A stretch of DNA of 62,824 nucleotides, filler included, from Asterionella formosa (taxonomy: Eukaryota): the NCBI GenBank assembly GCA_002256025.1. It is 10 parts of 10 records of this genome, joined end to end, with 100 filler letters (N's around TTAATTAATTAA, not from the genome) between each part and the next. Parts side by side here need not be neighbours in the genome. Positions count along the whole stretch, not along the records: positions 1 to 18,042 come from NKIB01004177.1; 9 more parts are not named here. The stretch is one strand, 5' to 3'. Below, piece by piece: positions 1-38,709 of the stretch (the first letter of the stretch is position 1; each line of letters opens with the position of its first letter). Under the pieces are notes generated by a model. The model ran no database searches. It was not told the origin of the DNA and saw only the letters and a list, made by a program, of their open reading frames with translations. The translations under genes were made by a program, and so were the position numbers.

Positions 1-569
1 GACGATGATGAATATATAGAACTCATGCATATAATGAACAAGAGGCGGCATAGCATACAAGAGGATGCATCGATATGAAAATTTAACTGTTGAAAATTAA
101 AGTTAAAAATATATATAATGTCAGAGAAGTAATCTAAAATATCTCTATTATCAGAGCGCAAGGACGATATTATGTAGCAGATCACCAGAATAATTTGTGT
201 TATAATACACACATGATATAATAATTTTTTATTATCAGAGCGCGCCCAGTATGTGAACAGTAACATGAATTTTATATAGGTGGAATTGATAGGGAGTCCA
301 AGAAGCCCCTCGAAAATCACAGGCTATGAAACAAAAATGTGACGATGGGCCCTGTTAAAAAACGAATGTGACACAATCTCCAATAGTAAGGTTTCGTATT
401 TGCTTCGTCTCCATCATTTATCATAATTGCTGTGCACACGTTGCTGGTACCATCATATCACCATAAAACTTGGGGTGTAGGCCTCGATGTTGTTTGTCTG
501 GCCTCGAAATACTGTCCGTAATCCATTGCCAGTCGTGGGAAGCAGAGTCAAGCACTTCACTGAACAACC

Positions 570-3500
570 ATGGCGCCACCACCAGCTAAACCAAAGCTCA
601 ATATGGAGGTGCTCAGATTGAAGCTGGCGTCCAATCAACATGCCTCGAGAACTTCAGCACCAGAACCTTTGGGCTTCACCACGGGTGCAAACTTCGATCT
701 CCCCTTTCATCTCGACGATGATCCACTGCTGCGGCAGCTCGCAGAGGATCGATTGAAGGAATTGCCATGTCATTCCATCGTCACCAGCAACAACATTTCC
801 GCTGGAAGGGCAACTATAGAAAATCAAAGACCGATGCTGCACTCGGAACTCCCGTTTCGAGAGGGAATTCAAAGGATCCAATATGAAGTTGCAAAGCCAC
901 CTGTTAGCACCGCAGCTGCTGTCGAAGCAACCGAACATCGTGTCAACCAAGGTGAAGCGCTAGGAAGCGCTTCATTCGTTTCCAAAGAAAGTTCAAGACC
1001 TGAAAAAAAGTCTACTAGAGTTGAAATGGAAGGAAGCAACAATTCTTCTGACGATAATTCCACTAATTCGCTGAAGCGTAAGCGACCAGGAACGCCAAAC
1101 GGTGACGAGGCGGTTTCGAATATCGAAAAGTTCAAAGATTATAGTACCAAACAGACCACGATAGTTCCAGCCACGCTGAAAAGTCCCACAAATTTGCCTT
1201 CTTGGCAAGGTGGATTTGACAAGTCTCATGCCAACGTGACCGATACCACTCATTCCCTTCAGGCTAACGAGAAATTCGATTGTAGCGATGATTGGTCAGA
1301 TGAAGGACGTGCATTGATTAAAAAAATTCATGCTTGTATCCTCTCAGATGAAGAGATCCTGACACAAATGGATATCATAGAAAATGTGATGGAATCCCAG
1401 TCCGAATCTGACATATCTCCCAAGTCAGTAACAAGTCATTTGTATGCCGCCGAGGAGGATTTTCTCGCAAAAGTGGATCGAAAGATTATGGCAGCGGAAA
1501 CAGATGATTTTCTTGAAAAAATCGGACGTAAGATTGATGATGCCGAGCTTAATAAAATAATGGATAACATTTACCAGCAAATTGTTGTCGCCGAATTCAA
1601 CGAGCGCTGGCCTGATGGAAAAATTCTCTGGGAAGAAGAAAATTTGAGAGAACCGAAGGATCCTACTGAACAATTTTCAGAGACAAATTGGGACATAGCA
1701 TTTTATGATGATAAAGATTTGAACCCGCATTTCTCTCCTCACCGAAAGAAGCGACAAGGAATCTCTTGCATGGTAGAGGACGAGGTTTTCTTCGAGCCTT
1801 CGGAGTTCGTTGCAATAAAGATTCTTCCAAAATTTATCGACTTGACTGATGAGCATATATTTCAAGCGGACATCCTGTTTAGGAAAGTTGTAAAAAAAGT
1901 GAAGGAATTGCACCCTAATGGTGTCCTTCGAATCTACCTGCGCGATCATGAGACAGACTCATCATCGGTCCAGCTTGAAGCCCGTGGAAACAAACCGCTG
2001 GTAAAAATCAGCTTGCACTTTATTCAGAACTTAGTAACAGCTCGGCAACTACGCTATCTAAGCTCTGTCAATCAGAAGAAGATGAACTCCTCTCGCGTTG
2101 CCAGTGACACAACGAAGGCGCCTTGTAAATTGTTCGATGAGAGAATAAGTGAAAAATCTAAAACCCAGGCAAGCGACAAGCAAGTAGATTATATCTTCTT
2201 TGGCCAAAAGGTGAAGGACCTGAAAATCAAAGAGCACGAATTTAGCGCAATCCCGCTAACATTTATCAAGAGTAGCATGTGGGAGCGCCACAAGGAAGAT
2301 ATCGGACGCCACTGTGATGACAAATGCCAGTGCCCGTTGAAGCTAGCAATGTTGACACGCAATGTAGTAGGAGATTTCATCAGGAAGCAGACCGAGAAAG
2401 ATCCAAACTGGAAAAACCCTAATAGACTTGTTGAGGGAAATTACCCTGTTGGTTTCATTGAAAACTTCATCCCGAAGTTTCTGGAAGTATTGAGAACTGA
2501 ATTTCCAAGCGAAAACCCAAAGGAATTGTACAGACGGCTCGAAGCCATGTGGCTGAAACACAAAGGATCGATTCAATACGGAATAACTTGCAGAAAAAAC
2601 TGTCATTGTGGCGAAGGTTGGGAGGTTGTCTTCAAGAAAGGCCGATGTGGAGATAATCGTACCACGCGTCCATCGAAACCTTCCATTACTTCTCAAGACA
2701 CATTAATGTCGATACCTCGCAACAAAACCAGCTTAATAGAGCCTTCACGATTGCAGTGTTTACCACAACCAGCGTCTTTGAAAAGAGACGCAAAGGAAAT
2801 GCGATCAAAAGGAGACCCGAAGGAATTCGTTATCGATTTTCCTTCTTCGCAAGGCATGGGCTTCTTTTGTGTGACGGACACCCGAGGCGTCTGCAAAATA
2901 ATTTCTGTAAATACGAAACAGCAAATTGATGCTAGACTCGCAGTGGGAACCATCATAGTTGCTGCTGCTATTTCAGGAAGCAGAAGTGAGTGGAACCACA
3001 TTTCATCCCATCGGGATATTGAACACATGTTTGAAAGTGCCAAGCAGAGGCGAGAGCTCATTTCTGTTCGCTTCATCAATTCCGAGGTCAAGGCAACCGA
3101 TATTCATCAAGATTTCAAAGTAGCGTGCAAGGATTGGGGTCCTGATGGTGTCTGGAGAGGCAAATATACTAAGTATCCCAATGGCTGGGCAGGTGGTGCC
3201 GCTCTCGCGTCAAGTGTTTCGTCGAAACTTAGCGAAAAGATGACTGCAGGGAAATATTCGGTGACGATGCCAAAATTGTCTCAGTTGCCCCAACCACTTT
3301 CGACGCCAACACTTTCGCAAGACGATTCCACAAGCTACGAAACCAAGAAGCAGCCTACAACTGTATCATTGCCTCCAACCGAACAACCTCTATTTGAATA
3401 TTTGTCTACTCAAGCCATCGCTAACCACAGAATGCACGGAACTGTCAAACCCATTTTGCGCATGGCGAAATTACGTTGGTCTTTCCATGCAGAGGAAGAG

Positions 3501-6032
3501 AAGAAGCAAGGATTTTTGCAGAACTATTTGTCAACTGTTGTCCCTCCAAAAAAGAATCCCAAAATATCGTTCGGGAAGCAGGTCGAGAAGCGATTTTATA
3601 ATCCTTCAGATACATCAATCGAAATGATGATTCCATTGACAAAAGAGGCAGAAACTGTTTTTCGAGAATCTTCTCCGGCAATTTCTGTGATCCTAAAGAA
3701 AGACAAGATGCAAACTCCAAGCTATGAAGCGCTCCTAGATGCAGTGAATAGCTCAAGTAAATCCTACACTGATTTATTCGAGTTATTAAAAGGAGGAGCA
3801 AATCCAACCATGACAGGGAATTCCGACAAAACCCCAGAATCTTATATAAAGGACAAACTCATTTCGTTGAATGGTGAGATGCTTCGATGCAAGGAAGGTA
3901 GCGCAACATGGACCAGCTTAAACATGCAATTCCAAGAATCTGATCGAAAGAAAAAGCTTCTAAAGATCTACACCATTGCTCAAGATGTAATGAACCAGGC
4001 CCGCTTTCTCAAATGTAATGAGCGATTAGATATTCAACTTGCTTGTTCCGAAAGTCTTTCATTGACCGAACTTGGACTTGAAAGAGAGGCTGATGATTTT
4101 GTTTGGTGGGATGTTTATGTGAAAGGGCAAAGAGTCCCTCGAACCCAACCAGCTACGTTGTCGAGTAGTATTGATTGGTTAAATGAGAAGGATTATCACT
4201 GCAATGAAAATCTCGATCTAGCCAAGGCCCGAGGAGAAGAAAGAAAATCCAACATTGTTCTTATTCTGAATAAGGGTAATCCAGATAGTGCCTTCTATGA
4301 ACTTGGTAGAAAGACAATCACCCTACGGGAGATTCGGCAAGCTTCAATTACTGATGGAAAGCTTCACAGTGACCTTGAATCAAGCAAGTACCTGAATAGT
4401 TGCAGGATCATTTTGAATGTGAAACGAAGGGCGGCTGAAAAAGACTACCGTGAAAAGAAACGTCAGGAAGCCACAAAGAAGCTCAAAGATCTACTACAGC
4501 AAATTGACAACTTTGTTATTGAAACGGGAAATGTTTATATGGAATCATTGGCAGCAGAAATACGATTGTCTATGCCTCATGCCCCTGCCATGTCCTTGCT
4601 GCATGCAGCAATTTATCTCGATGAGCCTGACTATGTTGAAGTTCTTATGAAGAAATATGGTGCCGACCCTCACTCAAAGAAATCTCGTGAGACACCTTTG
4701 GCACTTGCAGAGAAGAAGTTTGACAAGGTTTTAGACGACATTGAATTAAAGAAGAAACGATGTAGAATCCATGGTCTTCTTCTTGGCAAGTCAGTGGAAC
4801 AGTTGGAATCTGAGATGATTACAAATAGCAGTATTGATGATGACAATGATGATGATGATGACATTGAAGCTGAGCAAAGCAATGTAATGCACAAACTCAT
4901 TCCCGCAATTCACACGATGATCCCACCAAAGCACTCCCATCAATCAAACATAGATATCCAGAATGCCTGTACCCTACAAGCTTCAGTTTCAGAATCCTTC
5001 TCTCAAGGAAACAAAATCGTAAGCAGTATGAGCCATGGAATTTTAGAGTCATCGAACTCTGTACGTACTGCACTGCCATCAAATTGTAACACTCCAAGTG
5101 ATGTGCATTGGAACTCAGACAGTCAAACAAGAAACTTATACATGGCACCTCCCAGCTCACAAAATTTTGTTCATTTGAAATTGGATTGGATGCAACCCAA
5201 AACTCGAGGGGAATGTTTATTCTTCAACAAACCTGGAAAATGTAGACATCATCACTTATGTGAATTCTCCCACATCCAGCCATCGCTTGGAAACATTGTA
5301 GACCAGATTGAAGTCTCCTCCTCCTCTTTATCTAGTATGCATTGTCCTAATGTTAGCATCCGAAATGCCATGTCAAATGGTGAACAATATTTCACAGCTG
5401 GATACCTTGCTGGTGATGGTACCCGATATTATGCTGAGGGTGGACGAGCAGAAAAAGTAAATGGTATATCTTGGTACAGGAGTAAATGGGAGGCAGAAAA
5501 TGCACTGCTCAAGGTGGTATTCATACACCAGAATAATCTGCACCAGAAGCCCTATGTCAGTTATGAACAATCAAGTAAGTCAACGTCACATCCTTTGTTT
5601 GCACAACCCCAAAATGCCTACCAGCAAAAATGTTTTTCTTCACATTCTAACATGAATGTTTTCCACACACACCCACAAGGAGCATTACCAGGAAAAGATG
5701 ACTTTATTTTCAGAAGGTTGATAGATTCAAATCTTAGTAACATTTATGTGTTGTTGTACAAGTCACCATTGAGGAGGGATATGTGGACTATGCATCACAA
5801 GCATGATCTATTTGCAGCTGAATTTACAGCAGACGTTGATGGTATCATACAAAGATACCAGTCGGCTCACCACCCTGGAGGAGAATACCATAAACCACGA
5901 TGGTGGTACAAGACTGAAAAGGAGGCTAAGGCTAGTGCATTTGACTGCTTCTTGGATCATGCTGCAGAACGTGGCATGGTAAATCATGATAAGTTGAGCC
6001 GCATTGATGGGACAAGATTTGTTTTTAGTTAA
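570..6032 (+). CDS. Large multidomain orphan protein (1820 aa): twin W..H-x-CxxxCxC modules, PDZ-like, ankyrin-like x2, C2-like, CCCH zinc finger, two dsRBD-like modules
   Basis: Uninterrupted 5.46-kb ORF. CCCH CLFFNKPGKCRHHHLCEFSH (~5214-5273); ankyrin-like SLLHAAIYLDEPDYVEVLMKKYGADPHSK..ETPLALA; C-terminal FTAGY...WYRSKWEAENALL and FAAEF...WYKTEKEAKASAF. The ORF is confident, the domain calls are by eye. Confidence 0.85.
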   Translation: MAPPPAKPKLNMEVLRLKLASNQHASRTSAPEPLGFTTGANFDLPFHLDDDPLLRQLAEDRLKELPCHSIVTSNNISAGRATIENQRPMLHSELPFREGIQRIQYEVAKPPVSTAAAVEATEHRVNQGEALGSASFVSKESSRPEKKSTRVEMEGSNNSSDDNSTNSLKRKRPGTPNGDEAVSNIEKFKDYSTKQTTIVPATLKSPTNLPSWQGGFDKSHANVTDTTHSLQANEKFDCSDDWSDEGRALIKKIHACILSDEEILTQMDIIENVMESQSESDISPKSVTSHLYAAEEDFLAKVDRKIMAAETDDFLEKIGRKIDDAELNKIMDNIYQQIVVAEFNERWPDGKILWEEENLREPKDPTEQFSETNWDIAFYDDKDLNPHFSPHRKKRQGISCMVEDEVFFEPSEFVAIKILPKFIDLTDEHIFQADILFRKVVKKVKELHPNGVLRIYLRDHETDSSSVQLEARGNKPLVKISLHFIQNLVTARQLRYLSSVNQKKMNSSRVASDTTKAPCKLFDERISEKSKTQASDKQVDYIFFGQKVKDLKIKEHEFSAIPLTFIKSSMWERHKEDIGRHCDDKCQCPLKLAMLTRNVVGDFIRKQTEKDPNWKNPNRLVEGNYPVGFIENFIPKFLEVLRTEFPSENPKELYRRLEAMWLKHKGSIQYGITCRKNCHCGEGWEVVFKKGRCGDNRTTRPSKPSITSQDTLMSIPRNKTSLIEPSRLQCLPQPASLKRDAKEMRSKGDPKEFVIDFPSSQGMGFFCVTDTRGVCKIISVNTKQQIDARLAVGTIIVAAAISGSRSEWNHISSHRDIEHMFESAKQRRELISVRFINSEVKATDIHQDFKVACKDWGPDGVWRGKYTKYPNGWAGGAALASSVSSKLSEKMTAGKYSVTMPKLSQLPQPLSTPTLSQDDSTSYETKKQPTTVSLPPTEQPLFEYLSTQAIANHRMHGTVKPILRMAKLRWSFHAEEEKKQGFLQNYLSTVVPPKKNPKISFGKQVEKRFYNPSDTSIEMMIPLTKEAETVFRESSPAISVILKKDKMQTPSYEALLDAVNSSSKSYTDLFELLKGGANPTMTGNSDKTPESYIKDKLISLNGEMLRCKEGSATWTSLNMQFQESDRKKKLLKIYTIAQDVMNQARFLKCNERLDIQLACSESLSLTELGLEREADDFVWWDVYVKGQRVPRTQPATLSSSIDWLNEKDYHCNENLDLAKARGEERKSNIVLILNKGNPDSAFYELGRKTITLREIRQASITDGKLHSDLESSKYLNSCRIILNVKRRAAEKDYREKKRQEATKKLKDLLQQIDNFVIETGNVYMESLAAEIRLSMPHAPAMSLLHAAIYLDEPDYVEVLMKKYGADPHSKKSRETPLALAEKKFDKVLDDIELKKKRCRIHGLLLGKSVEQLESEMITNSSIDDDNDDDDDIEAEQSNVMHKLIPAIHTMIPPKHSHQSNIDIQNACTLQASVSESFSQGNKIVSSMSHGILESSNSVRTALPSNCNTPSDVHWNSDSQTRNLYMAPPSSQNFVHLKLDWMQPKTRGECLFFNKPGKCRHHHLCEFSHIQPSLGNIVDQIEVSSSSLSSMHCPNVSIRNAMSNGEQYFTAGYLAGDGTRYYAEGGRAEKVNGISWYRSKWEAENALLKVVFIHQNNLHQKPYVSYEQSSKSTSHPLFAQPQNAYQQKCFSSHSNMNVFHTHPQGALPGKDDFIFRRLIDSNLSNIYVLLYKSPLRRDMWTMHHKHDLFAAEFTADVDGIIQRYQSAHHPGGEYHKPRWWYKTEKEAKASAFDCFLDHAAERGMVNHDKLSRIDGTRFVFS

Positions 6033-6449
6033 GCTGTTTCTGTCTGAGGTTTGTTGATAAAGTTGTAATTGGTGACTGAAGAAGCAAGAAATCATGTGAT
6101 CTACACCACATATGTGAGTTTTTTTCAGTGGCAGAAACACCTAAGAATTAATGAAAAGTGAAAGGCACCATCAATTTTGATATCTATGTATTGGGAAGCT
6201 GAGTGCTGAGCACTGTTGCTTACCATAGGTTTACAGCACATTGATATTTTGTCCACCTTTCAGCATGATAATTGAGGCTCTGACAATGGCAATACTCACA
6301 GTTGTTTGCTGTTGTTGCCAGTATGATCATTATCAGCCTCTAGTAGTATCTAGTATGTTCTACTACAAGTACCACCAGTCAGATATGGCCATATGGCCTT
6401 GCTGATAATCTATGTTGGTACAGCATGAATGTTCCTTGAGATATGGCAA

Positions 6450-6591
6450 CATCGAAGCATCTCACCATTCAACGAAATGAGTTTGTCCTTTATATAAGAC
6501 TCTGGGGTTTTGTCGGAATTCCCTGTCATGGTTGGATTTGCTCCTCCTTTTAATAACTCGAATAAATCAGTGTAGGATTTACTTGAGCTAT
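6450..6591 (-). repeat. 142-bp inverted copy of 3748-3889 (coding sequence of the 1820-aa gene)
   Basis: Its reverse complement matches atagctcaagtaaatcc...gagatgcttcgatg, with one mismatch seen (taagactctgg vs taagattctgg). Confidence 0.95.
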
Positions 6592-6648
6592 ATCATCCGG
6601 ATGTGTGAGTTCCCCCAAAAAAGCAGAAATTTTTTTGATTTTTGCATT

Positions 6649-6669
6649 TATCTCTGTTAAGATTGGCCC
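6649..6669 (-). mobile_element. Solo PIF/Harbinger-type terminal inverted repeat
   Basis: The reverse complement GGGCCAATCTTAACAGAGATA matches GGGGCAATCTTAACAGAGATA at 22208, the terminus of a Harbinger transposase remnant. It is flanked by CTG (CWG-type target). Confidence 0.6.
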
Positions 6670-7064
6670 CTGGGTTAGAACCACGACGCAAGGTGTTTTA
6701 GTTTCTTGTGTGTGCATCATACAGATATCATGATAATAATAATATGCGAACTCCAAGTTGACACCTCGTGAAGTGATGCTGCTGCTAATACTTGACAACA
6801 TGCGATGACGATGTTATTTATAACTTGTCAATTGCAGTGAACTTGGAATATATGCTGTCCATGCGGTACAATATGTAGTATGTACTAAAGATACGGGAGT
6901 ATTTTTCTCGGCACATGATCACTCCGCCTACCGCACCTATGTACAGCGGGCGGATTGGAAGCATGATTGCTTCTGAGGATTGTCCACCCTTTTTCTCTTG
7001 ATGGATTGCAACCCAACACACAAAAAGCATTCCATCATTTGAACTTCGTTTTCAAAGAGACACA

Positions 7065-9428
7065 ATGATCGCTCGTGCTGCTGCTGCTCAACGACTGTGT
7101 CGCTCACTAGCTAGAACTGGAACTAGTGCACCCGGTCTTGGCTCATCGCTGGAAGGCACTTCTCCCTTCGCTCGAAAGAAGCCAATTTCGACAGAATGCC
7201 GCTTCCATTCGACTGCACATGTTGATGTCGAGTCTCACTATGACGAATCTACAAAATGTAATTTTATGCCTACGACTGAGCGGAACTATGAGTTCTTTCA
7301 GAATGTTGAGCTTACTTCTGATGGAGTGGCTGTTATTCGATTTGATTGTCCTAAGTCAGTCAATACAATCAGTTTTGCACTCAAGGACGAAGCCAAACAA
7401 TTATGGAAGAAAGAGATTGAAAGCAATCCTGCTGTCAAGGCAGTTGTCTTTTCATCCGCTAAGCCTGGCATGTTCATCGCAGGAGCCGATATTTTTGATA
7501 TCAAGGCGATCGAAGACAAGGCACAGCTTGTCCCTCTGATTGAAGACGGCCTCAATTTCTTCCAGCACATGAAAAAGAAGGGCATTCCTCTTGTTTGCGC
7601 CATCGACGGTCCTGCGCTTGGAGGGGGACTTGAGTGGGCTCTGTGGTGCGACTACCGTGTTGCTTCTGATAGCAAAAAAACAAAGCTTGGTCTCCCAGAA
7701 GTCAAGCTCGGCCTTCTCCCTGGTTTTGGCGGTACTCAAAACCTTCACAAGCTCATCGGTCTACAAGCAGCCATGGATGCTATGCTAACTGGCAAGGACA
7801 TCCGACCTGATAAAGCCAAGAAGATGGGCCTCGTAGACCTGGTCACTAGTCCTGCTGAAGTCGAGAGGGTTGCTATTGAATCCGCTGTCCAGCTCGCCAA
7901 AGGTACTTTGAAAGTCAAGCGCAAGCCAAAGGCCTGGATGAACCGCCTTTTGGAGGACACATCGTTCGGGCGATCCATTATATGGAAAAAGATCGACGAA
8001 ATGGTTATGAAGAATACAAACGGAAACTACCCTGCTCCATTGAAGATCATTGAGTCGGTTAAGTATGGAATCGACAACCCCTCCAAGCGGTTTCAAAAGG
8101 AGCGCGACCTTTTTGCCGAGCTTGCTGCTACTCCAGAGTCAGAAGCTTTGATTGGCATCTTTGATGGTATGACTCAAACTAAGAAACACTCATTTGGAAA
8201 TGTCGCGCAGCCAGTGACGACTATTGCTGTCATGGGTGCGGGGTTGATGGGAGCTGGTATCGCCCAAGTTTCTGCTGAGAAAGGTTTCTCTGTTCTCTTG
8301 AAGGATCGCGATGATGCCTCAGTCTCTCGTGGCCAAACGTACATGAATGAAAACTGGAGAAAGAAACTGTCCAAACGGCATATGACACAGTACCAATTCA
8401 GTCTTAATACTTCAAACGTGACCCCTCTCACGGACGACATTGAGTCCTGGAGGCGACATTTTGGGAAGGCAGACCTTGTCATTGAGGCGGTCTTTGAAGA
8501 TCTTGACTTGAAGCGCAAGATTGTTGCCACAATGGAAGAGGTGACTCCTGAAAATTGTATCTTTGCCACCAATACTTCTGCCATTCCAATCGGGGATATT
8601 GCTGTTGGCGCTAAAAGGCCAGATCAAATAGTTGGTATGCACTACTTTTCCCCAGTCCCTCAGATGCCACTATTGGAAATCATTCCACATGCTGGAACTT
8701 CTGATGCTACGAAGGCCACAGCATTTGAGGTCGGAGTCAAGCAAGGCAAGACTTGTATCATTGTCAAGGACGTTCCGGGGTTCTACGTAAATCGTTGTTT
8801 GGGTCCTTTCCTGGTCGAAGTCAGTGCGTTGGTACGTGATGGTGTTGGCCTTGAGCATTTGGACAAGAGCATGAAAAATTTCGGTATGCCAGTTGGTCCG
8901 ATCACTCTAGCAGACGAGGTCGGTATTGACGTGACTTCGCATGTAGCCAAATTTTTGTCGAATGCCGACCTTGGTACTCGCATGGGTGGAGGTGATATCG
9001 CCTTGATGCAAAACATGATCGAGAAGGGTTGGTTGGGTAAGAAGTCTGGAAAGGGCTTCTACTCCTATAAAGGAAATAAGAAGATCCTCAACCCCGATAT
9101 CAATGGATATATCAAGACATTTGTTACTAAGGATTTAAAGCTCGCAGAGAAAGAGATCCAGGATCGAATGGTTAGTCGTTTGGTGAACGAAGCCGCCAAG
9201 TGTTTGGAAGACGAGATTATTGAGGACCCCATTGTTGGTGACATTGGATTGGTCTTTGGTATAGGTTTCGCCCCATTCCGTGGAGGTCCATTCCGATACC
9301 TCGACCAAATCGGTGTTGAAAAATATGTCGATATGATGAATGGTTTTGCTGACAAATACGGTCCACAATTTGAGCCTTGTCAATTGCTGAAAGACTATGC
9401 TGTATCTGGGAAGAAATTCCACAAATGA
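7065..9428 (+). CDS. HADHA: Mitochondrial trifunctional enzyme alpha subunit (enoyl-CoA hydratase / 3-hydroxyacyl-CoA dehydrogenase)
   Basis: Crotonase motifs FIAGADI, ALGGGLE, LPEVKLGLLPGFGGTQ; Rossmann GAGLMGAGIA; GMHYFSPV; PGFYVNR; Arg/Ala/Ser-rich transit-peptide-like N-terminus. Confidence 0.96.
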   Translation: MIARAAAAQRLCRSLARTGTSAPGLGSSLEGTSPFARKKPISTECRFHSTAHVDVESHYDESTKCNFMPTTERNYEFFQNVELTSDGVAVIRFDCPKSVNTISFALKDEAKQLWKKEIESNPAVKAVVFSSAKPGMFIAGADIFDIKAIEDKAQLVPLIEDGLNFFQHMKKKGIPLVCAIDGPALGGGLEWALWCDYRVASDSKKTKLGLPEVKLGLLPGFGGTQNLHKLIGLQAAMDAMLTGKDIRPDKAKKMGLVDLVTSPAEVERVAIESAVQLAKGTLKVKRKPKAWMNRLLEDTSFGRSIIWKKIDEMVMKNTNGNYPAPLKIIESVKYGIDNPSKRFQKERDLFAELAATPESEALIGIFDGMTQTKKHSFGNVAQPVTTIAVMGAGLMGAGIAQVSAEKGFSVLLKDRDDASVSRGQTYMNENWRKKLSKRHMTQYQFSLNTSNVTPLTDDIESWRRHFGKADLVIEAVFEDLDLKRKIVATMEEVTPENCIFATNTSAIPIGDIAVGAKRPDQIVGMHYFSPVPQMPLLEIIPHAGTSDATKATAFEVGVKQGKTCIIVKDVPGFYVNRCLGPFLVEVSALVRDGVGLEHLDKSMKNFGMPVGPITLADEVGIDVTSHVAKFLSNADLGTRMGGGDIALMQNMIEKGWLGKKSGKGFYSYKGNKKILNPDINGYIKTFVTKDLKLAEKEIQDRMVSRLVNEAAKCLEDEIIEDPIVGDIGLVFGIGFAPFRGGPFRYLDQIGVEKYVDMMNGFADKYGPQFEPCQLLKDYAVSGKKFHK

Positions 9429-9989
9429 AGACCACTTGTCAAGAACCTGTATTAGAAACTTGTAGTAGTCCTTCTGGGTACAATATCCTTTCAAGTGCAA
9501 TTTCTATTTGGCCACCATGATGTTCATATGGTCACTTGTCCAACCTCTTGTAAAATGTATGAACAAAGAAAGGTCGCAATTCAATTGTTCTTTAACTCTT
9601 TTTGATTTACTCCACCTAAAAGGGACACTAAGCTAGTTAGTCTTTTATGTTGCATGGTTGGTGTTGTTGCTCACAGCAAAATTTGTTCGTTGGTTTATGT
9701 ATCCTTATCACTGTCATCAAGCTTGTTCTTGACATGGGAACGCACAATTTGACTCATTGGACTATGAAGATCAACTCCACAGTCCTTGTTACATACGTTA
9801 TATAGAGTATATATTTATTTATTATATTTATTTTCCACTGGATGCCAAGTAAATAAATAGCTGCAATAAATCAGGCTGTGAACGAACATTGATGTACCGG
9901 TACTTGCAGCGCAAACCTCCCGGTAGTCCATTGAACCCCCAACTCGAATCGACTCTGGAATAGTCTTGATTATCTTATAACAATCTGCA

Positions 9990-12179
9990 ATGTCTTCGGA
10001 AGATGTCATGACGATTACACCGCTGGGAAGCGGCCAGGAAGTGGGACGGTCGTGCCACCTGCTCGAGTTTCGCGGGTTGACAATTTTGCTCGATTGCGGA
10101 ATCCATCCAGGATATGAAGGCATGAACGGCCTTCCATATCTTGATCGAATCGAGCCAAGTCAAGTTGATATTCTTCTTATCACACATTTCCACTTGGATC
10201 ACGCAGCGACCTTGCCCTACTTTACGGAACGAACAAGTTTCAAGGGGCGCATCTTTATGACACATCCAACCAAAGCCGTCCTGCGCCTGCTTCTAGGGGA
10301 CTTCTTGCGGTTGCTGCAAATGAAGAATGCGAAGCCAGAAGATGTCCTGTATACAGAGTCGGAACTATCATCGTGCATGGACAAGGTAGAATTGATTGAC
10401 TACCATCAAACTGTGCAAATCAAAGGTTCTGGCTTGAGTTTCTATGCGCTCAATGCAGGCCATGTCCTCGGTGCTTGCATGTATTGGCTAGATTTCGGCG
10501 GCCGTTCGCTGCTTTACACTGGGGACTATAGTATGGAGGAAGATCGACATTTGATGGCTGCAGAGGTACCCACCAAGAAGCCTGATGTTCTAATTTGTGA
10601 ATCCACCTACGGTGTTCAAGTCCATGCCTCTCGACCAGAGCGGGAAGCTAGATTTACTGGAACCATCGAACGCGTAGTAACTCGAGGAGGGAGATGCCTC
10701 ATACCTGTGTTTGCTTTGGGTAGAGCACAAGAACTTTTATTAATCCTCGACGAATATTGGCAGGAAAACGCTCACCTCCAGAAAGTGCCCATTTACTACG
10801 CTTCCAAAATGGCCTCGCGCGCTCTTCGAGTTTACCAAACCTACGCAAATATGATGAATGCTCGTATCCGTGCGCAGATGGATGTATCTAATCCATTTCA
10901 TTTTCAATTTATTCAGAACCTGAAGTCGATTGACGTCAACTCGTTTGATGACTCGGGGCCATCAGTAGTTTTTGCCTCCCCTGGTATGCTTCAATCCGGA
11001 GTGTCACGTCAGCTATTTGACCGATGGGCAGCAGACCCAAAGAATGGTGTATTGATCGCTGGTTATGCAGTGGAGCACACTTTAGCCAAAGAAATTATGA
11101 ATCAACCAAAGGAAGTTGTTACACAAGAAGGACGACGTCAACCTCTGAATTGTTTAGTGGATTATGTTTCATTTAGTGCTCATGTTGACTTCGTACAAAA
11201 CCGAGCATTTATCACATCTGTAGAGCCAAAACATATTATTCTTGTGCATGGACAAAAGGATGAAATGGGACGTCTCAAGTCTGCACTCCGCTTGCTGTTC
11301 CAACGACTACCAGAGTCGAAACAACCTACAATCACAATGCCGCCCAATTTGCAACAAGTCAAACTTAAATTTGCAAGGCGCCGACAGGCAAAGATAATGG
11401 GTGAGCTTGCCGAGGGCGATCAGCCCAAAGAGGGAGAAGAAATTCAAGGAATTTTGGTTACTCACAACTTCAGTAGCAAAATTGTGGCTCCCAAGGACTT
11501 GAGTACATACACACCTCTTCGGGTGGGTGCCATTTCGTCCAAGTTACATGTCCCTTTTTGTGGCAATACGCATACCCTTCAACTATTTTTGTCAGAAATG
11601 TTCACTGGTGTGACATGGAAGGAAGGAGAACAGGGTGTTGATGGCCAAATCATCATGGTCTACAGTTTACGTTCCGATAATATTACAGTAACAACTGGAA
11701 TGAGCCGAGGAGTTGCAACTGTGGAGTGGAATGCAAGCCCAGCTAATGATGTCATTGCGGACGCTGTTGTGGCATTATTGATGCATGCACAAAGTAGTAC
11801 AGCTTCTATTCGCCTAACAAGCAAACCTTGTCGTCACGGAAATTCTGACGACAGTGACGAGCCATCAAGTAAAAAGCTGAAGACGACGAGCGAGAGTAGA
11901 TTACGGCTGATTAGGGACGTCCTCCTTGATCAGTTTGAATCTGTGGAAACGGTATATGATTCCAACTCTGCAACATATGAAATAACTACTGATTGTGGGT
12001 CGGGACCAGGCACAGTAGTAGACGATGGAACCTTGGTTTGCACTGCCAATGTCAAGTTTGATGATAACGAAGGAACATGTGCCACCATAACAGTGGAATG
12101 TGCAGACACAAAACTTGCAAACAATGTACGCGACTGCTTACAAAACATTGCAGCAACATCTGCTCCACTGCAAACATGA
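9990..12179 (+). CDS. CPSF3: Cleavage and polyadenylation specificity factor subunit 3 (CPSF73/YSH1), MBL/beta-CASP endonuclease
   Basis: PLGSGQEVGRSC, THFHLDH, NAGHVLGA, YTGDYS, PVFALGRAQE, SFSAHVD, ILVHG, and a CPSF73 C-terminal EWNASPANDVIADAV. Confidence 0.97.
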   Translation: MSSEDVMTITPLGSGQEVGRSCHLLEFRGLTILLDCGIHPGYEGMNGLPYLDRIEPSQVDILLITHFHLDHAATLPYFTERTSFKGRIFMTHPTKAVLRLLLGDFLRLLQMKNAKPEDVLYTESELSSCMDKVELIDYHQTVQIKGSGLSFYALNAGHVLGACMYWLDFGGRSLLYTGDYSMEEDRHLMAAEVPTKKPDVLICESTYGVQVHASRPEREARFTGTIERVVTRGGRCLIPVFALGRAQELLLILDEYWQENAHLQKVPIYYASKMASRALRVYQTYANMMNARIRAQMDVSNPFHFQFIQNLKSIDVNSFDDSGPSVVFASPGMLQSGVSRQLFDRWAADPKNGVLIAGYAVEHTLAKEIMNQPKEVVTQEGRRQPLNCLVDYVSFSAHVDFVQNRAFITSVEPKHIILVHGQKDEMGRLKSALRLLFQRLPESKQPTITMPPNLQQVKLKFARRRQAKIMGELAEGDQPKEGEEIQGILVTHNFSSKIVAPKDLSTYTPLRVGAISSKLHVPFCGNTHTLQLFLSEMFTGVTWKEGEQGVDGQIIMVYSLRSDNITVTTGMSRGVATVEWNASPANDVIADAVVALLMHAQSSTASIRLTSKPCRHGNSDDSDEPSSKKLKTTSESRLRLIRDVLLDQFESVETVYDSNSATYEITTDCGSGPGTVVDDGTLVCTANVKFDDNEGTCATITVECADTKLANNVRDCLQNIAATSAPLQT

Positions 12180-12203
12180 TACACAACGAGATTTATTCAT
12201 AGT

Positions 12204-13700
12204 TTACATTAGCTCCACTTTCACTTCATTTGACGCTTTATCGTCGCCCAACCGTTTTGTCGAAGGCGTGACTTTCAGAATTCGGTAGCCACACTCTGGA
12301 ATTGCCCACATGTTACCATCCGTACCAATGAAGGCGCCTTGCCACTTGTCTTTTCTGCCTGGCAAATTACCAACCAGCTGCATGGGATTCTCGTTTTCCC
12401 CGATCTCTGGTCGTGTGTCAATGCGGAGCACATGTTTCCCATTTGCTGGGATAGCATAGACAGCTCCATCTGACGAGAGGACCCCACCTTGCCACTTGTT
12501 TTTTTCTGTGCCGACAAATCCAAACGTTGAGCAGTGATCATTAGTAACATTAATCTTCAAAATAGATGACGCATCAGCTGGCATTGCGTAAATGTGACCG
12601 TCTTCTCCTATCGCACCACCCAACCACTTGTAGTTCTTGGTACAATCTGTATCATATGACGCTCGATGAATGCTCAATTGTTTACAATTCTGCCCCTTGC
12701 TACCTTCGGTTGTGTCTATCTTCAAGACGGTGTCAGCATGTGAAGGAAATGCGTAAATCATTCCATTTCGCTTGAGACCTCCGTGCCAATTGTAAAGCTC
12801 GCAGCCATGATCTGGCCCAACTAGTGAAGCCGTGTCTGTAGCACAATCAATTCGTAATACAGAGCATGTTCGATATGGCATTCCGTACACAGCATTGTCG
12901 TCTCCCAGTATACCTCCGTACCACTTGTTGGTATGTTCCATGTTGAAGTTTGTGTATTTTTCTGGTATGTCAATGTCAATGAAACTAGTTGTATGTGTCT
13001 CAAGATTTACTTTGAGGACGTTTTGCGCATTGGATGGAATAGCATAAATGGCTGTCTTTTCGTTGTTGAGCGAGGCCCCGTGCCATTTCCACTGCTTCGG
13101 GTTGTACCCCTCAGGCAAAGGGATCAAGTTGATAATGTTACCTTTGGCCTCACGCTTACCCCACATGGCATCAATATCCACTTCCAGAACATAGTTGGCC
13201 CACGCCGGTATCCCATATAGATACCCATGCGCAATGATTCCTCGAAGCCATTTGAATTTCCCAGTAGCAGCATGGTCGGGCAGCGGCTCAATGCGGATTT
13301 TGTAGTCCCCATCCTCGGGATACAAACAAATCAAAGATTTTGAATGCGAAGGAATTCCGTAAATGCAACCATCTCTGGGATCGCATGCACCTCCAAGGTA
13401 TTTGTGAATTCCAGGAAAGACGCCGCCATGCTGGGAGGCCCCTTCTCCATATTCCTTAGCAAGTTCCACTATTGCCTTGGCCATCGGCTCCGAGAGATGA
13501 TGAGGATCAAGGAACTGTTGCTGTAGCTTTGCACATTCCACCTTCCATGCATCATCGTCGGATTGGGGGGCTGGTTTCGACCCCAAGATTCCCATATTTT
13601 TTGGATTTATTACCCAAGCGGGCGATTCTACTACAAGAGCTGAGATGATTGCAATAAGCAAGGCTACTACTTCGGCAAATTCAGGTCTGCCGAGGCGCAT
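12204..13700 (-). CDS. Repeat protein, probable beta-propeller (KWxGG...DGxIYxIP..A..VLKI repeats)
   Basis: About 8 repeats such as KWYGGILGDDNAVYGMP and KWQGGVLSSDGAVYAIP. The start is ambiguous (13700 or 13595). Confidence 0.85.
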   Translation of the reverse strand: MRLGRPEFAEVVALLIAIISALVVESPAWVINPKNMGILGSKPAPQSDDDAWKVECAKLQQQFLDPHHLSEPMAKAIVELAKEYGEGASQHGGVFPGIHKYLGGACDPRDGCIYGIPSHSKSLICLYPEDGDYKIRIEPLPDHAATGKFKWLRGIIAHGYLYGIPAWANYVLEVDIDAMWGKREAKGNIINLIPLPEGYNPKQWKWHGASLNNEKTAIYAIPSNAQNVLKVNLETHTTSFIDIDIPEKYTNFNMEHTNKWYGGILGDDNAVYGMPYRTCSVLRIDCATDTASLVGPDHGCELYNWHGGLKRNGMIYAFPSHADTVLKIDTTEGSKGQNCKQLSIHRASYDTDCTKNYKWLGGAIGEDGHIYAMPADASSILKINVTNDHCSTFGFVGTEKNKWQGGVLSSDGAVYAIPANGKHVLRIDTRPEIGENENPMQLVGNLPGRKDKWQGAFIGTDGNMWAIPECGYRILKVTPSTKRLGDDKASNEVKVELM

Positions 13701-13879
13701 GAGCGAATGACACGAGAATAGAATTATCGATAGGATGATTCATTCAGTAACGCTCGAGTTGAAGGCAAGAATGAGCGACGATCTCCAATCCTGACTTCAC
13801 TTCGTTCCTTGCTGATATTATGATCCCAGAAAATAACAAGCTGCTGAAAAAACAATGTTCTGTACAAAAATATATCATA

Positions 13880-14205
13880 CTTGGTACCAGGTACCGGTAG
13901 GAGTACTCCTTGGTATCATTTTATTAGAGGATTTACCGGTAATCTGGTACTGGTACTATGTAGAGACGATGATTTTGTTGATTCAAAACAGAGCAAGAAG
14001 ACATTCATTTTGCAGTTGCTTCTCAAGTCTGATTCTGGTCCCGGTATCCCTCGTGCTGGTACAGTAGGAGGTGGTTGATGGTGTGGCTGTGCGGCACCGG
14101 ATCTGTCGTCTGGCCTGTTGCTCGGGAATACGTGCGATACCAGTAGATATACCGGTATATATGTATGTGTAGCTGGTTGCAACCTGACGCTCAATATACC
14201 GGTAA
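13880..14205. repeat. GGTACC/TACCGGTA-rich low-complexity tract
   Basis: ttggtaccaggtaccggtag, tctggtactggtac, ataccggtata, etc., upstream of the propeller gene. Confidence 0.7.
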
Positions 14206-14380
14206 TTGGATACGTTGCCTGAGCATAGAGTTGTTCTGCATTTAATAATCAAGAGTAAAACTTTTTGATGTGCACACAAAATTGACGCAATATTTGTTCT
14301 TTTTATGGCTGGGTGGACGAAGACTAAAGTTTGGGTAGCCATAGTAGAGCTGGTATGTTATTTTTTTAGCTTTCAGTTGG

Positions 14381-14932
14381 ATGCTGACTCTATCATGTCA
14401 TTTCACTTGCTTCATTCCATCTGACAATGGTGGTGAATATCTCCAGATCTACTTTGTCTCCCATGTGCACCGCAAGCTGTATCTGACCATTTTGACCATT
14501 ATGAGCCAAAGAGACATTGGTGCATACGGCAAACAATGCACCCACCATCCGTTTATATTGACTTGTTTCAAGGCTGCCATAAGCAAACATGTGCTTCATG
14601 ATTGCTGGCTACCAGCAGACCAATTGCAGTTATACATACTCCAGAAATACTCAATTGAGGATGAAGCACAGTTTAATTTAGCTTCGATGATAAGGGTGGT
14701 CAACAAGGTGCTTCCTCTCATGAGTTATGCACCAAACATTCTAGAGATTCAAGGTGGCCAACAAGTGCAAGTATACAGGCATTCCTTCCAAAATCGGAAA
14801 TGTCGCTATCTCTTCTTTGTCACCACCAAATTGAAATTCGTTCCTGCCCTCCCTTCACATTTGAAAGTGTCATCAGCCATGGGAGCGAGATTGGTGTGTA
14901 TTGACAAGGCTTTGAGCAGGCAGTCAGAGTAA
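14381..14932 (+). pseudogene. Degenerate ORF of unknown origin, probably transposon-derived
   Basis: A 183-codon protein-like ORF inside CpG-poor, repeat-rich DNA, with no recognisable motif. Confidence 0.3.
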
Positions 14933-15814
14933 GCCATTGTCAATGATAATTTCTAAACAAGAAATTATAGTGATGGATGATGCTATCAACAATGGCAATG
15001 GAGATGGATTGGAACAGCCAAAAAGCGAAAGAGGGGGAGCAATGAATCAGAACCAATTATATTTAGTCTTGCTAAACATCATCAGATGAAAACAGACATC
15101 TGCAAAAAAATATCATATTTCCATGATGCATCATAGGATTTTTATAATCTGATAATAATTTTTTGTTATATCATCTAATAATTGTGATAAATGCCCTTGT
15201 AATTTTGAATAGTAACCGTTTTGACTACGTATATTTAATTATTATATGTATTGTTACTATTTGATTCCTGTATTTGAATTTATGGTAGGATAATGTACCA
15301 GCTAAAGTAAGCAATGTAATTTGGCTTGTCATTTCCATCCATCATCACTTCAATTTTTGCAACAACAACGAAATACTACCGGTACTTAGCGATGATAAGT
15401 GGAATGATTGTTCGCGATAACGTCTTCAATTGTTGGTCAAGTGATCATTATATCTTTGATTAATCGTCATGTGCAGTGAACCTAGTATGTTCATAATCAT
15501 TCAATTAAGAATACACAGAGAAGAAATCATTCAAACTTGGACTGGTTCTGCACTCAGCGCACATAGTACATCCGTTTCTTTGACCACCAGCATTACAATC
15601 TCGCCAATCAGCTTGTGAACAAACACATTCTATTTGCTCTTGTTGACATTTTCAATTATCACATGATACTACATCAACAATTGAGATTCAACGTAGAAGG
15701 AGATACGAAAATGTAACAGACTGCTGTCCACATAGTTATAGCTATAGAATGATTCTGATTACAATTTCTTTTTCATATCGCTCGTTTCCGCATTTGGGAT
15801 GCTGTACTTTATTC

Positions 15815-16325
15815 ACTGTAGAACTTGTCCACATCTTTCTTTCCATCAATAGAGCGACAAGTGACTCTCTTCATTGTTGTTTGCTCATGATTGAAAACCC
15901 TCCTGGTATCGTGTATCATCAACAATAGAGGGACGAATGTCCTTCATCATCATCATTGTGGTTTGCTGTAGGAAAAATTTGATAACCGTATTGTCATTTA
16001 CTTGCTTGTTTGAACTTTCCATTGCCTCAAACCTGCTAAGCGTGTGCGTAAACACACTGTCGACTTGTTTTCATTGGTATGTTGTTCTTGTATTCACGGT
16101 TGAACTTTTCCGCATCTTTGTTACCATCAATAGAGCGACAAGTGGCTCTCTTCATTGTTGTTTGCTCCTGGAGAAGTCGGTGTCCGCGTCATGAGGACAG
16201 GTGTCCTTCATCATTGTGGTTTGTTGCTGGAAAAATTGGTACCCATATCGTCATTCGCTCGTTGGAACCACTGTCTGTTGCTTCAAACCTGCTTAGCCTG
16301 TGTGTACGTACACTGCTGACTTGTG
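15815..16325. repeat. Diverged tandem duplication (~270-bp unit)
   Basis: ccatcaatagagcgacaagtg(a/g)ctctcttcattgttgtttgctc occurs near 15843 and 16124; tcaaacctgct...cacactg..gacttg occurs in both copies. Confidence 0.8.
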
Positions 16326-16639
16326 TACATTACAGCAGTGACTTAGCTACTAAAGTGCGTGTTATAATATCATACTCTGTAGTACGATGCAGAATACAGT
16401 TCCCAATCAACATTGAATGATTGATAAGATGAAAATGTGATATTACAATAGGGTTGCTTCGATGCATACATCACCAATATGTGATATGTAATATTGAATA
16501 ATGTTTATCACATAACTATGATACATTGATCATAGAACTATGATGATTTCATAAAATGTTTATGATGTATTTTTAATCAAAATATGATCATGTTAAAATA
16601 AAACAAAGATAATAAAATACGATAAAAATATGTACACAA

Positions 16640-17250
16640 TTGTTATGAACAGGATAGAATGAAAATGAATTAAAAATAATAAATTTGTCATCACTCCAAA
16701 CATGCTGTGCTGGACAATCCAGAGTCGTGAAATTATCACTCCACCATTGTAGTAAAAATGGAGGAATACCGCTATATATAGTACAGGCGGCGCTACTAGT
16801 AGTATAGAGCAGTGTCAATGTTTTCCTAACATTTATGATATGGTTTGCATTGTAGAAGTCTCACACTAATTATATTTATTATGTAACTACTAAGTATGCA
16901 TTGGATTCTATTAGATCCATTCAAAAAACGTTGTCATCAATGTCCTGTTGATTAATGCTGTCATTGTCATCAATTTTCTTCTCAGTAACATTTGGCTGAA
17001 GTGGCTCAACATGATATTGATCTTAAAATCAGCTGTTGCTACAAGGAAATGAATCATCAGCCAATACATAAAAAAATTTAAAGCTGTCTAGATATGATAC
17101 CATAAGACCAACAGTGCTATTTACATCATCATTTACAAAATCAGAACCGAGTTTGAGTAATAGCATATATTGCTCTCAATTTTACGATCATACAATCCTG
17201 AGCGCTGCAGTAGCAACAGTCCTGAACATATGGTGTTCTGTTGCAGCGGG
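16640..17250 (-). mobile_element. Internally deleted derivative of the Plavaka-like element at 23.4-26.5 kb
   Basis: 16645-17020 is homologous to 24001-24377, and 17018-17245 is homologous to 26141-26395. Confidence 0.8.
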
Positions 17251-18042
17251 AGATATATACTGATATCATTGTTCATTCAAAGAATTGGACAACGCGACTA
17301 CATGAATCCCATGAGAAGACAAGTAATCATTCAACAACCTACCGCATCCATTTGACAATGAATCGCTAGTACTTGTGTTTTCAATGAACTCATTTCGATT
17401 TAGACTGGGCATGGTGAAAGTGAATTCCTGAAGTCTGTTTTCAGGCAACGAACAAAAACGAGGTGAATACTAGATATATTTTAATCAAATCTGTCCAGGG
17501 CTGGAAAAGCGAGGGGCAATTGGCGTAAATTGTCTTCCGAAATGCGAACATTCGAAATATACAAAATATATTTTAATGAAGGGCAATATCAGACCTTTTC
17601 TATGTACGAAAATATTTTTGATATCATGGTCTATAGTAAGCTAAAAATGACATTTATGCTACCGGTATATTTGTTGGCATTAGGTAAGTGAATGGCGCGA
17701 CGATAGCTAGTTTTTGAATTGCCTCAACAATAACCCTTCTCGATGGCCACTTGCCTTCTCGTAGGGCGCCAATCATACATACGGTAAACGTACTCGCGCT
17801 AGCCAGGCTCGAACACATGTATCCACTCGCAGGCAAGATGGTCGGGCGTGTCTTGCCTTCAGCAATCAGAATCGAAGAATTGAAAATACGGTATTGCTTA
17901 CCACGCAATTCAATGTCATAGAGGCAATACCACAGTCTACACGAAGCTGGAGGAAACAGCAAGCAGAGGAACAACAAAGGGCAGAACACGGCAATTGTAA
18001 ACTCTCATTTCAATAGCCTCGATATACGATTGCCATTGCCCA

Positions 18043-18142
18043 NNNNNNNNNNNNNNNNNNNNNNNNNNNNNNNNNNNNNNNNNNNNTTAATTAATTAANN
18101 NNNNNNNNNNNNNNNNNNNNNNNNNNNNNNNNNNNNNNNNNN
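18043..18142. other. Artificial contig spacer N44-TTAATTAATTAA-N44 (also at 36167, 37388, 38610, 39831, 41052, 59165, 60385, 61605)
   Basis: The same 100-bp spacer, with stops in all six frames, occurs nine times. Confidence 0.98.
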
Positions 18143-22185: not shown

Positions 22186-22207
22186 GCTAGCAGAATGCAG
22201 GGACTAA

Positions 22208-23335
22208 GGGGCAATCTTAACAGAGATACAAATAATTATTTTTTGTTGTATCTTCAGAAAAAATTTCACAAATGCATCTCAGTATCAGTGAAACAGTTAG
22301 CCGTTTTTCGTGTCTCTGCAAACATGTGCATCAGAATCTGCAAAAATAGTGACAATGTGTACTTCAATTATCCAACCTGTCTAATGATCATCATTACTCA
22401 AATGAGAATGACAAATCAACCAGAGTAACCTGACAGCTGGGCTTTCATTGAAAATCTTGATTTAGAACAGGAAATACAACAAGAGCAACAAACAAACCTT
22501 TTTGTTACTTGCAGAGTTGCATTATGGACAAAACTTGAAGCCAGTGCAATCAGCAAAATTGGAGCATCAACAACTTGACTGGAATGATCATGTCACAAAG
22601 CTTCTCCATGAGAATAGGGTTCATTGTTAATATTGCATGTCTCTTCAAGTTTTCAACCAACTACTGGAACAACTTCGACCTTCCATCAGTTGATGCTATC
22701 AAATTAAAGCAAGTTCCGGTTTATATAGGACAAATTGGCATATTTATCCCAAGTTGATCCTTGCCATTGGCCTTTGCTGACTTGCAGGCAGAAACATCAT
22801 AGACATTCATCATGTCTATGGAGTTTCTTATCCACCTGTTAATGCAATCACTAAAATCTTCCTTGATGTGGTGAACTCCTGAACAGCATTATAAATTTAA
22901 TTCCCACTAACAAATCCTTGTAACAAACAAAGAGAAATAAGCAGTGATGAATGGATTTCTTGAAAATAGCAAACAGCAACTATTTTGTGGATGTATTGCT
23001 GCTATAGATAGGCATTTAAAGCCTATTTAAAAATCAAGAAAATATGATAATGTCAGCTTCTAACAAGCATATCAGTCTGGGCATTATATGTAATATTGAA
23101 TTGAAAGTTCAAGCTATTTACAGCAGTAATTGTTGCTTCCTTAACTTTGTGTTTTAGCACCAGGAAAATGTCCAGATCAGAAGAGGACATTTGAAAGGAC
23201 ACATTTTTCAGATGGTATACAACTTTTGTCCAGGACAAAAATACTAGGTGATGCTGCTTACACATTGACTAATCAAGTGGTCCTCTGTCCCATTTTTGGA
23301 AGTCAAAGGGAATCAAAAAACAATGATGCAGGCAT
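22208..23335 (+). mobile_element. Degenerate PIF/Harbinger DNA transposon (TIR plus DDE transposase remnant)
   Basis: TAA followed by the TIR GGGGCAATCTTAACAGAGATAC; FCGCIAAID at ~22984; ILGDAAYTLTNQVVLCPIFGSQRESKNNDA at ~23241; many stops, strongly CpG-depleted. Confidence 0.75.
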
Positions 23336-26400: not shown

Positions 26401-26510
26401 CTACTCCACCTACTATTTTTAAATTTTACGATCGTACAATCCTGAAACTATGATGATTTACTGTCCTGCTGCAGTAGCAACAGTCATGAACATATGGTGT
26501 TCTGTTGCTC
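23430..26510 (-). mobile_element. Degenerate Plavaka-like (CACTA/EnSpm-related) DNA transposon with accessory ORF fragments
   Basis: LKLYHSVTGFLLSPF and MIIGDTEVHNKICG...VCRDCLVSFEDADNP at 23480-23770; accessory ORF STEAFCFLVLKGKF...NGLTDQWTDELLGYYKEI at 24304-25013; other copies of its parts occur in this window. The family name is from memory of the motifs. Confidence 0.6.
26305..26510. repeat. Tandem duplication (~115-bp period)
   Basis: tacaatcct...tgatgatttactgtcc..ctgcagtagca.cagtcatgaacatatggtgttc occurs twice. Confidence 0.8.
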
Positions 26511-38609: not shown

Positions 38610-38709
38610 NNNNNNNNNNNNNNNNNNNNNNNNNNNNNNNNNNNNNNNNNNNNTTAATTAATTAANNNNNNNNNNNNNNNNNNNNNNNNNNNNNNNNNNN
38701 NNNNNNNNN

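Follow-up and report, generated by a model that had tools for sequence, protein, structure and literature searches.

Insertions templated by DNA close to a break have been described at several kinds of sites. Flank-templated insertions carry 1-4 nt of microhomology according to PMC7407515, PMC4423477 gives filler lengths of as much as 123 bp for sites of DNA transposons in rice, and a pattern of template-switch repair insertion is outlined in PMC7407515, PMC4423477, and bioRxiv 2020.08.10.245175. In this study, a 62,824-nt stretch of DNA from the diatom Asterionella formosa (GenBank assembly GCA_002256025.1), hereafter the window, was analyzed. [quoted passage not shown] The copy is probably a templated repair patch in a decayed transposon end, and the fold-back that it creates would then be accidental, with little or no regulatory role.

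Positions 1-18,042 of the window are one contig (NKIB01004177.1) of the 68.4-Mb assembly, which consists of 15,436 contigs; the remaining parts come from further contigs, with N spacers in between. A search of the literature, with most subscription journals outside its scope, gave no report either of this locus or of a diatom dsRBD gene with a natural self-hairpin.

Identification of the inverted repeat

Repeat search and alignment showed that the arms at 3748-3889 and 6450-6591 were 142 nt long, inverted, identical at 141 of 142 positions, and 2560 nt apart (self-BLAST, E 1e-53), in agreement with the original prediction, which had described a reverse complement of 142 bp with one mismatch. 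The template arm (plus strand) lies in the CDS and covers amino acids 1060-1107; the sole mismatch, CDS 3839 against copy 6500, falls on the third position of a Glu codon. The copy (minus strand) starts 417 nt past the stop codon (6032) and ends 473 nt 5' of the ATG of a HADHA gene (7065), where about 420 and 470 bp had been predicted. In a genome-wide search, the arm sequence was found at two places only, the donor and the copy. The copy had been predicted to be recent, which agrees with the single base by which the arms differ. Four CpGs were counted in the copy and four in the CDS arm, against none at 6001-6452, so that the predicted contrast between a copy that keeps its CpGs and about 450 bp of CpG-free sequence before it was found in the counts. 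Further apparent repeats of 101-114 nt in the window were N-run contig separators with a 12-base spacer (18,043-18,142 and eight similar places), and were discarded.

The 24 sequencing runs listed for the stretch were labelled as freshwater, lake or algae metagenomes and included no small-RNA or bisulfite run; four of them were compared in detail: X1 and X7 (DNA), and X9 and X15 (RNA). In their word shares, X10-X12 resembled X9, and X13-X14 resembled X15. An assembly artefact was considered, since the assembly is fragmented into its 15,436 contigs and no single contig of the runs compared spans both arms. However, two X1 contigs crossed the left and right junctions at single-copy depth (4893-6479, depth 166; 6562-7166, depth 155), each stopping 30 bases into the copy, the usual behaviour of a de Bruijn graph at a repeat, and the 142-nt repeat itself was collapsed into a contig with a depth of 299, about twice the single-copy depth. 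X1 is a possible source of the assembly, yet at 6850 it carries an insertion of 6 nt that the window lacks. Run X7, from a separate study, covered the right junction, showed a single additional change at 6580, and had no cover of the left junction; the left junction was seen in the RNA of X9. No joint skipping the copy was seen in the X1 or X7 contigs, and two scans of metagenomes, one using protein alignment and the other a 22-nt pattern from the flank, found no copy-free allele. The copy is thus present in the three genotypes seen, namely the window, X1, and X7 (right junction only in X7). The inverted repeat is real and not a product of assembly; misassembly, for which the junctions had been proposed as the check, is largely refuted and now extremely improbable.

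Sequence flanking the copy

The locus had been predicted as a repeat only; the repeat stood, and the transposon-end sequence on its flanks had been overlooked. The 80 bases to the right of the copy matched 13 other places in the genome, all with the same end base. This segment, 6590-6669 (plus strand), is the terminal 80 bp of a PIF/Harbinger right end by its profile match (nhmmer, E 7e-12), which begins on the last 2 bases of the copy and finishes in the terminal inverted repeat of the family; it was the only significant match of the family profile on the window contig (1-18,042). After removal of the copy in silico, the match grew by 16 model positions leftward to 6430, and its score rose from 31.8 to 40.7 bits, a score reached by 7 of 1000 random flanks and by 1 of 340 shifted local flanks. 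This test used a profile of the right end, which replaced a larger family profile that aligned poorly at the end. The segment 6430-6452 (plus strand) therefore appears, with moderate support, to be the left continuation of the same transposon end. Against the reconstructed target, the joints showed microhomology of CAT (3 nt) on the left and AT (2 nt) on the right, with AT doubled; each of these is short enough to occur by chance.

Because the family match resumes to the left of the copy, with CAT and AT at the joints, the copy has the appearance of having been inserted into the relic of a PIF/Harbinger right end. The relic shared 74-82% identity with the family over 80 bp, while family copies were mostly 85-92% identical among themselves, so the relic is older than the copy.

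Elements of the family were 1.9-3.5 kb long, with one of 7.7 kb that contained insertions, and were rich in internal deletions. Full copies began with GGGCC at both ends, where the consensus GG(G/C)CC is given for PIF/Harbinger terminal repeats among the class criteria in Table 1 of PMC4423477. Exact terminal 16-mers of the family occurred 53 times in the 68.4 Mb. A broken DDE_Tnp_4 transposase relic (PF13359, E 1.4e-12) was found in family copy L021, and TAA or TTA stood outside 22 of the 41 distinct family ends examined. Matching 3-bp pairs were found at the ends of copies L028, L059, L065, and L082 (TGA), but not of L021, L022, and L027. With regard to a second gene of Myb/SANT type, a single one of the several open reading frame (ORF) pieces on the opposite strand was searched against Pfam, and it gave no meaningful match. 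By its terminal repeats, TAA/TTA target-site duplication, and DDE_Tnp_4 domain, the family is PIF/Harbinger.

At the relic itself, no partner (left) terminal repeat was found in 1-6589 by motif search with 3 mismatches or by nhmmer, and the three bases outside the relic end were CTG, not TAA/TTA. These results bear on a Pack-type origin, in which the gene fragment would have been taken in during gap repair or by a deletion that replaced the element body, giving a would-be Pack-Harbinger element. The position of the copy inside an element end and the many internal deletions of the family are what such a capture would leave. However, besides the lack of a partner repeat and of TAA/TTA, the copy is single and 2.6 kb from its donor, and the element sequence appears to run on across the joint without loss. 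Judged on sequence, the locus shares with Pack-PIF elements the gene fragment inside an element, and lacks both the pair of ends with a duplication and mobilization with the cargo. A Pack-type capture or deletion filler is accordingly quite unlikely.

Two other candidates at this site were set aside. A long terminal repeat end at the left joint was ruled out, as 6000-6460 is unique in the genome, and a decayed transposon body at 6033-6449 is not claimed, as pairwise scores were no better than those of shuffles. Weak transposon matches in the flank were seen at 6268-6322 (E 0.1-0.15) and at 6061-6116 (BLAST E 0.005 but nhmmer 3.1). No older inverted copy of the gene was found in 1-9500.

Elsewhere in the window, more diverged and very CpG-poor relatives of this PIF/Harbinger family, with 75-80% identity, were located at 22,205-23,330 and 33,195-33,320. 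Another dispersed repeat family, also nested in or beside Harbinger copies, was located at 15,096-17,244 and 23,999-26,536, and a tandem array of units of about 38 bp at 37,615-38,638.

Origin of the copy

The repair filler that the original prediction had offered as its alternative proved the best fit to the junctions and the transposon setting. Both features of a templated insertion were found, namely an insert matching nearby DNA (141/142) and microhomology at both joints. Under this model, an old PIF/Harbinger element just past the 3' end of the gene, known from the homology of its remains, would have been worn down until a solo right end of some 100 bp was left. A later break would have fallen about 80 bp inside this relic end. 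The broken end may have primed via 3 bases on the coding DNA of the gene 2.6 kb upstream; about 140 bases would have been copied in inverted orientation, and the end rejoined via 2 bases, by synthesis-dependent end joining or synthesis-dependent strand annealing. A DNA template in cis is preferred to a random complementary DNA because the donor is close by. The patch is carried by every genotype examined.

Several results weigh against this model. Local inverted copies are rare: none was found in 400 kb from large contigs and one other in 355 kb around transposon ends, although short-read assemblies under-count them. Local filler was absent at the three further solo ends of which the inner flank is unique DNA. 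The transposon homology on the left side is only about 23 nt long (p about 0.007). It is also a striking coincidence that so rare an event struck a gene whose product has dsRBD folds, and its outcome is shared by the window, X1, and X7 (right junction). Against that coincidence, the protein family is ancient, the copy is young and shows no sign of constraint, and transcription of the gene was observed.

A young local inverted duplication of 403 bp, with 97.8% identity, was observed in a repeat-rich region of the sequence L025 (1974-2376 and 2706-3108). In the gene, the arm begins at the foot of a minor local hairpin (3748-3786) with z-scores of -1.9 as RNA and -0.6 as DNA, the latter not significant against shuffles; this hairpin was set aside as evidence.

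CpG depletion at the 3' end of the gene

The CpG-free stretch at 6001-6452 was the deepest part of a gradient of CpG loss that reaches into the CDS. The observed/expected ratio (o/e) fell from 0.94 at 570-3747 through 0.63, 0.33, and 0.35 to 0 at 6033-6449, and was 0.82 to the right of the relic. Loss was also seen at synonymous sites (48/258 vs 9/145, p 5e-4). The gradient had a log-likelihood of -504.2, compared with -506.5 for a step at 4450-4925 and -511.5 for a step at the left arm; a CpG loss bounded by the arms was ruled out, the step at the arm being 5 log units below the best step. The o/e of the kilobase left of the copy was 0.15, which ranks with the lowest values seen: of 399 windows of 1 kb taken from large contigs, 2 had 0.2 or less. 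At 4450-6449, the erosion extended about 2 kb into the conserved coding region, and CpG-type amino-acid changes were slightly in excess (17, against 8 in reverse).

The erosion predates the copy, because the arms differ by one base. The flank is CpG-free, as had been predicted; its loss belongs to an older gradient toward the relic and is not an effect of the copy. Long methylation of the 3' region may have eroded the CpGs as far as some 2 kb inside the gene, and this methylation was probably tied to the old element. According to PMC2724275, methylation in Phaeodactylum spreads along transcribed DNA and not into promoters; by analogy, such transcription-wise spreading would fit the one-sided loss. 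However, the flank (o/e 0.11-0.2) is more CpG-poor than the family bodies (0.43-0.59) and their outer flanks (0.68-0.79), so the erosion is not fully accounted for by simple spreading from the element, a point that weighs against the repair model.

Transcription and predicted pairing of the arms

The gene consists of exon 1 (570-5574, plus strand), an in-frame GT..AG intron of 105 nt (5575-5679), and exon 2, the coding part of which runs from 5680 to the stop codon at 6032, as supported by the ORF and RNA contigs. The predicted ORF was corrected for this intron, which was spliced out of the transcript assembled in both RNA runs compared and the 35 amino acids of which are absent from protein P0001; the spliced protein has 1785 amino acids. 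The intron is free of stop codons, and its retention would add 35 amino acids between the two dsRBD-fold modules.

In metatranscriptome X9, a spliced contig, the strand of which is not known, covered the 3' flank (6033-6479) and extended at least 30 nt into the copy. The CDS contigs of X9 broke at the matching arm end (3889/3860), with no break at the other arm end. X9 reads thus cross the left junction, as shown by the entry of the contig into the copy together with the matching break in the CDS contigs. DNA carry-over in X9 is unlikely, since 6513-7054 had no cover. In the poly(A) run X15, the contig ended at 6144, 305 nt short of the copy, and passed the CDS arm unbroken. These contigs carry neither strand, level, read-through fraction nor true 3' end, and both the lack of X9 cover at 6513-7054 and the end of the X15 contig at 6144, as absences in contigs, are weak hints.

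All six full-length spliced members of the protein cluster came from contigs in which 274-502 nt lay outside the CDS, whereas a contig with the whole arm would need 559 nt. As evidence for an inactive fold-back this length argument is biased, because read-through breaks such contigs at the repeat, and this bias counts among the points against the repair model. Cluster member P0154 has up to 462 nt after the stop and could reach 6494, a case made ambiguous by its TTG start. Inclusion of the copy in the RNA, on which the prediction was conditional, was seen as an entry of at least 30 nt in X9; a transcript with the whole 142-nt arm was not found, the poly(A) contig ending at 6144. An AATAAA at 6561 in the copy was considered as a donated poly(A) signal and was not used, as diatoms are described in PMC6413133 as having no dominant hexamer.

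Modelled RNAs ending at 6479, 6493 or 6591 paired arm to arm over 30, 44, and 141 pairs, which agrees with the predicted fold-back of mRNA that bears the copy. The minimum-energy fold contained the duplex, which closes a loop of 2.4 kb; the modelled duplex had -52 kcal/mol for 30 nt and -258 kcal/mol for 142 nt. According to these models, some RNA can form a duplex with the CDS arm: most mRNA probably stops before the copy or just inside it, while read-through RNA would enter the copy and could pair with the CDS.

The accidental fold-back may also be active without being part of a selected circuit, if a read-through duplex of 30-142 bp were diced or marked for decay, giving small RNAs, CG methylation, and lower expression. 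The spliced X9 contig that reaches 6479, with DNA carry-over unlikely, and the stability of the modelled duplex point in this direction, as do an Argonaute gene with a Piwi domain and Dicer-like genes (two tandem RNase III genes) found in the genome. In addition, PMC2724275 describes gene silencing by inverted-repeat transgenes in Phaeodactylum, accompanied by CG methylation over the region transcribed. However, the poly(A) contig stops at 6144, the contigs give neither strand nor read-through fraction, and diatom Dicer products are described as coming mostly from transposons (PMC11910954, citing Grypioti 2024). The retention of 4/4 CpGs in both arms was counted against activity, yet it is uninformative at the young age of the copy. 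An active fold-back is therefore unlikely, and a repair patch whose fold-back has little or no regulatory role is preferred. Diatom small RNAs map mainly to transposons according to PMC4247016, and little is known of endogenous fold-back targets. If natural diatom hairpins are processed, the locus is a natural test case that offers an exact 142-bp address for small RNAs or methylation.

Encoded protein and neighbouring genes

The CCCH zinc finger at 5214-5273 was supported by sequence searches, as predicted, while an ankyrin assignment was weak. The two predicted dsRBD-like modules were confirmed at the level of fold: AlphaFold2 models of module 1 (5319-5537) and module 2 (5709-5969), all three features being on the plus strand, had pLDDT values of 92 for one module and 86 for the other. 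In a structure comparison (VIA) with 48,161 chains, the best matches were dsRBDs, with Z 7.1 and a root-mean-square deviation (rmsd) of 2.5 A over 75 residues for one module, and Z 5.6 and an rmsd of 2.5 A over 60 residues for the other; these Z values are middling (below 8). The top rows were nearly all dsRBDs (HYL1, DRB4, DCL4, MLE, DHX29), with which both modules share the order of helix, three-stranded sheet, and helix. Unlike those dsRBDs, the modelled modules carry an additional beta-hairpin ahead of the final helix, are not matched by Pfam dsrm, and have no GPxH loop.

Sequence-based and other structural searches gave less. Foldseek found no match at E <= 0.001 for the modules, Pfam dsrm was absent from the protein and from the 38 of 255 homologues scanned, and PDB profile searches with the protein found no dsRBD. 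A genome-wide dsrm search matched a different contig only. The Atlas gave nothing for the window part, and leads at 0.76-0.78 only for a homologue. Profile comparison between the modules was uninformative, as some rows contain both. Among the dsRBD motifs GPxH and KKxAK listed in PMC4748816, the first was absent from both modules in the alignments; module 1 had no such basic patch as KKxAK, and module 2 had a KxAK-like patch, [K/R]xA[K/R], in 7 of 9 distinct aligned sequences. According to the models, both C-terminal modules have the dsRBD fold, and any RNA binding by them is putative.

The three closest relatives of the protein were 47-48% identical, and the C-terminal part had 255 representatives without informative names. 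This family (5160-6029) combines CCCH with one or two dsRBD-fold modules carrying the extra beta-hairpin, and some members add KH or ankyrin. No paper on it was found in the literature searched; a family of large proteins with divergent dsRBD-fold modules invisible to Pfam is a side result of this study.

dsRBDs recognise shape, not sequence. This matters for a self-regulatory loop, in which the modules would bind the duplex in the long 3' isoform of their own mRNA and set their own level, the copy being kept by selection. The dsRBD fold of both modules (Z 7.1, 5.6), the basic patch of module 2 in 7/9 sequences, the RNA that enters the copy, and the presence of the copy in all three genotypes seen are compatible with such a loop. 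On the other hand, the protein family is old and the copy is about as old as the differences between strains, so the protein worked without the copy. GPxH is missing from both modules, and the basic patch from module 1; among the 42 bases of the copy that X7 covers, one more is changed, with no sign of constraint; and any duplex would serve a dsRBD, because shape and not sequence is recognised. A selected loop of this kind is very unlikely. The related case, in which chance repair gave a gene for a CCCH and tandem-dsRBD protein a long-range duplex on which the protein or Dicer acts, so that a single step created an autoregulatory circuit, which then spread within the species, is equally hard to credit; if true, it would be a feedback circuit born in a single mutation. 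Self-regulation is thus conceivable but unsupported, with a very low probability, and duplex binding by the protein is putative.

Downstream of the copy, the HADHA-type gene for the trifunctional enzyme alpha subunit (7065-9428, plus strand) was identified by the Pfam domains 3HCDH and ECH. It is followed at 9993-12,179 by a gene for the 3'-end endonuclease CPSF73/CPSF3.

Comparison with described systems

As a repair scar, the copy would be ordinary, a member of the class of fillers and templated insertions. Like the published fillers as described in the sources cited above, it would be DNA copied in cis, with microhomology within 1-4 nt at both joints, at a DNA-transposon-end site. Unlike them, it is 142 bp long, compared with 1-123 bp in rice and 4-50 bp in maize; its donor is 2.6 kb away, whereas theirs lie within 100 bp; and its break is about 80 bp inside the element end, not at an excision site.

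The Pack-PIF (Pack-TYPE) elements of maize and rice, as described in PMC8903248, also hold a host coding fragment within PIF/Harbinger terminal sequence. In contrast to those elements, the locus has one end only and no target-site duplication, and its fragment is a single copy, unmoved from its donor.

In the arrangement of its arms, the locus resembles Arabidopsis PAI1-PAI4 and VIM4-VIM2, where, according to PMC13213937, a natural rearrangement brought inverted gene sequence within reach of read-through. Those are described in PMC13213937 as whole-gene repeats with small interfering RNAs, methylation, and silencing, whereas the present locus has a 142-bp piece across a 2.4-kb loop and is known from sequence and RNA contigs. 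The closest diatom parallel on the RNA side is with the Phaeodactylum tricornutum constructs of PMC2724275, in which fold-back RNA against a coding sequence silences a diatom gene with CG methylation; those constructs were engineered and strongly driven, while here the RNA comes from endogenous read-through. By analogy with the Arabidopsis cases, the locus could become a hairpin locus of the PAI/VIM type.

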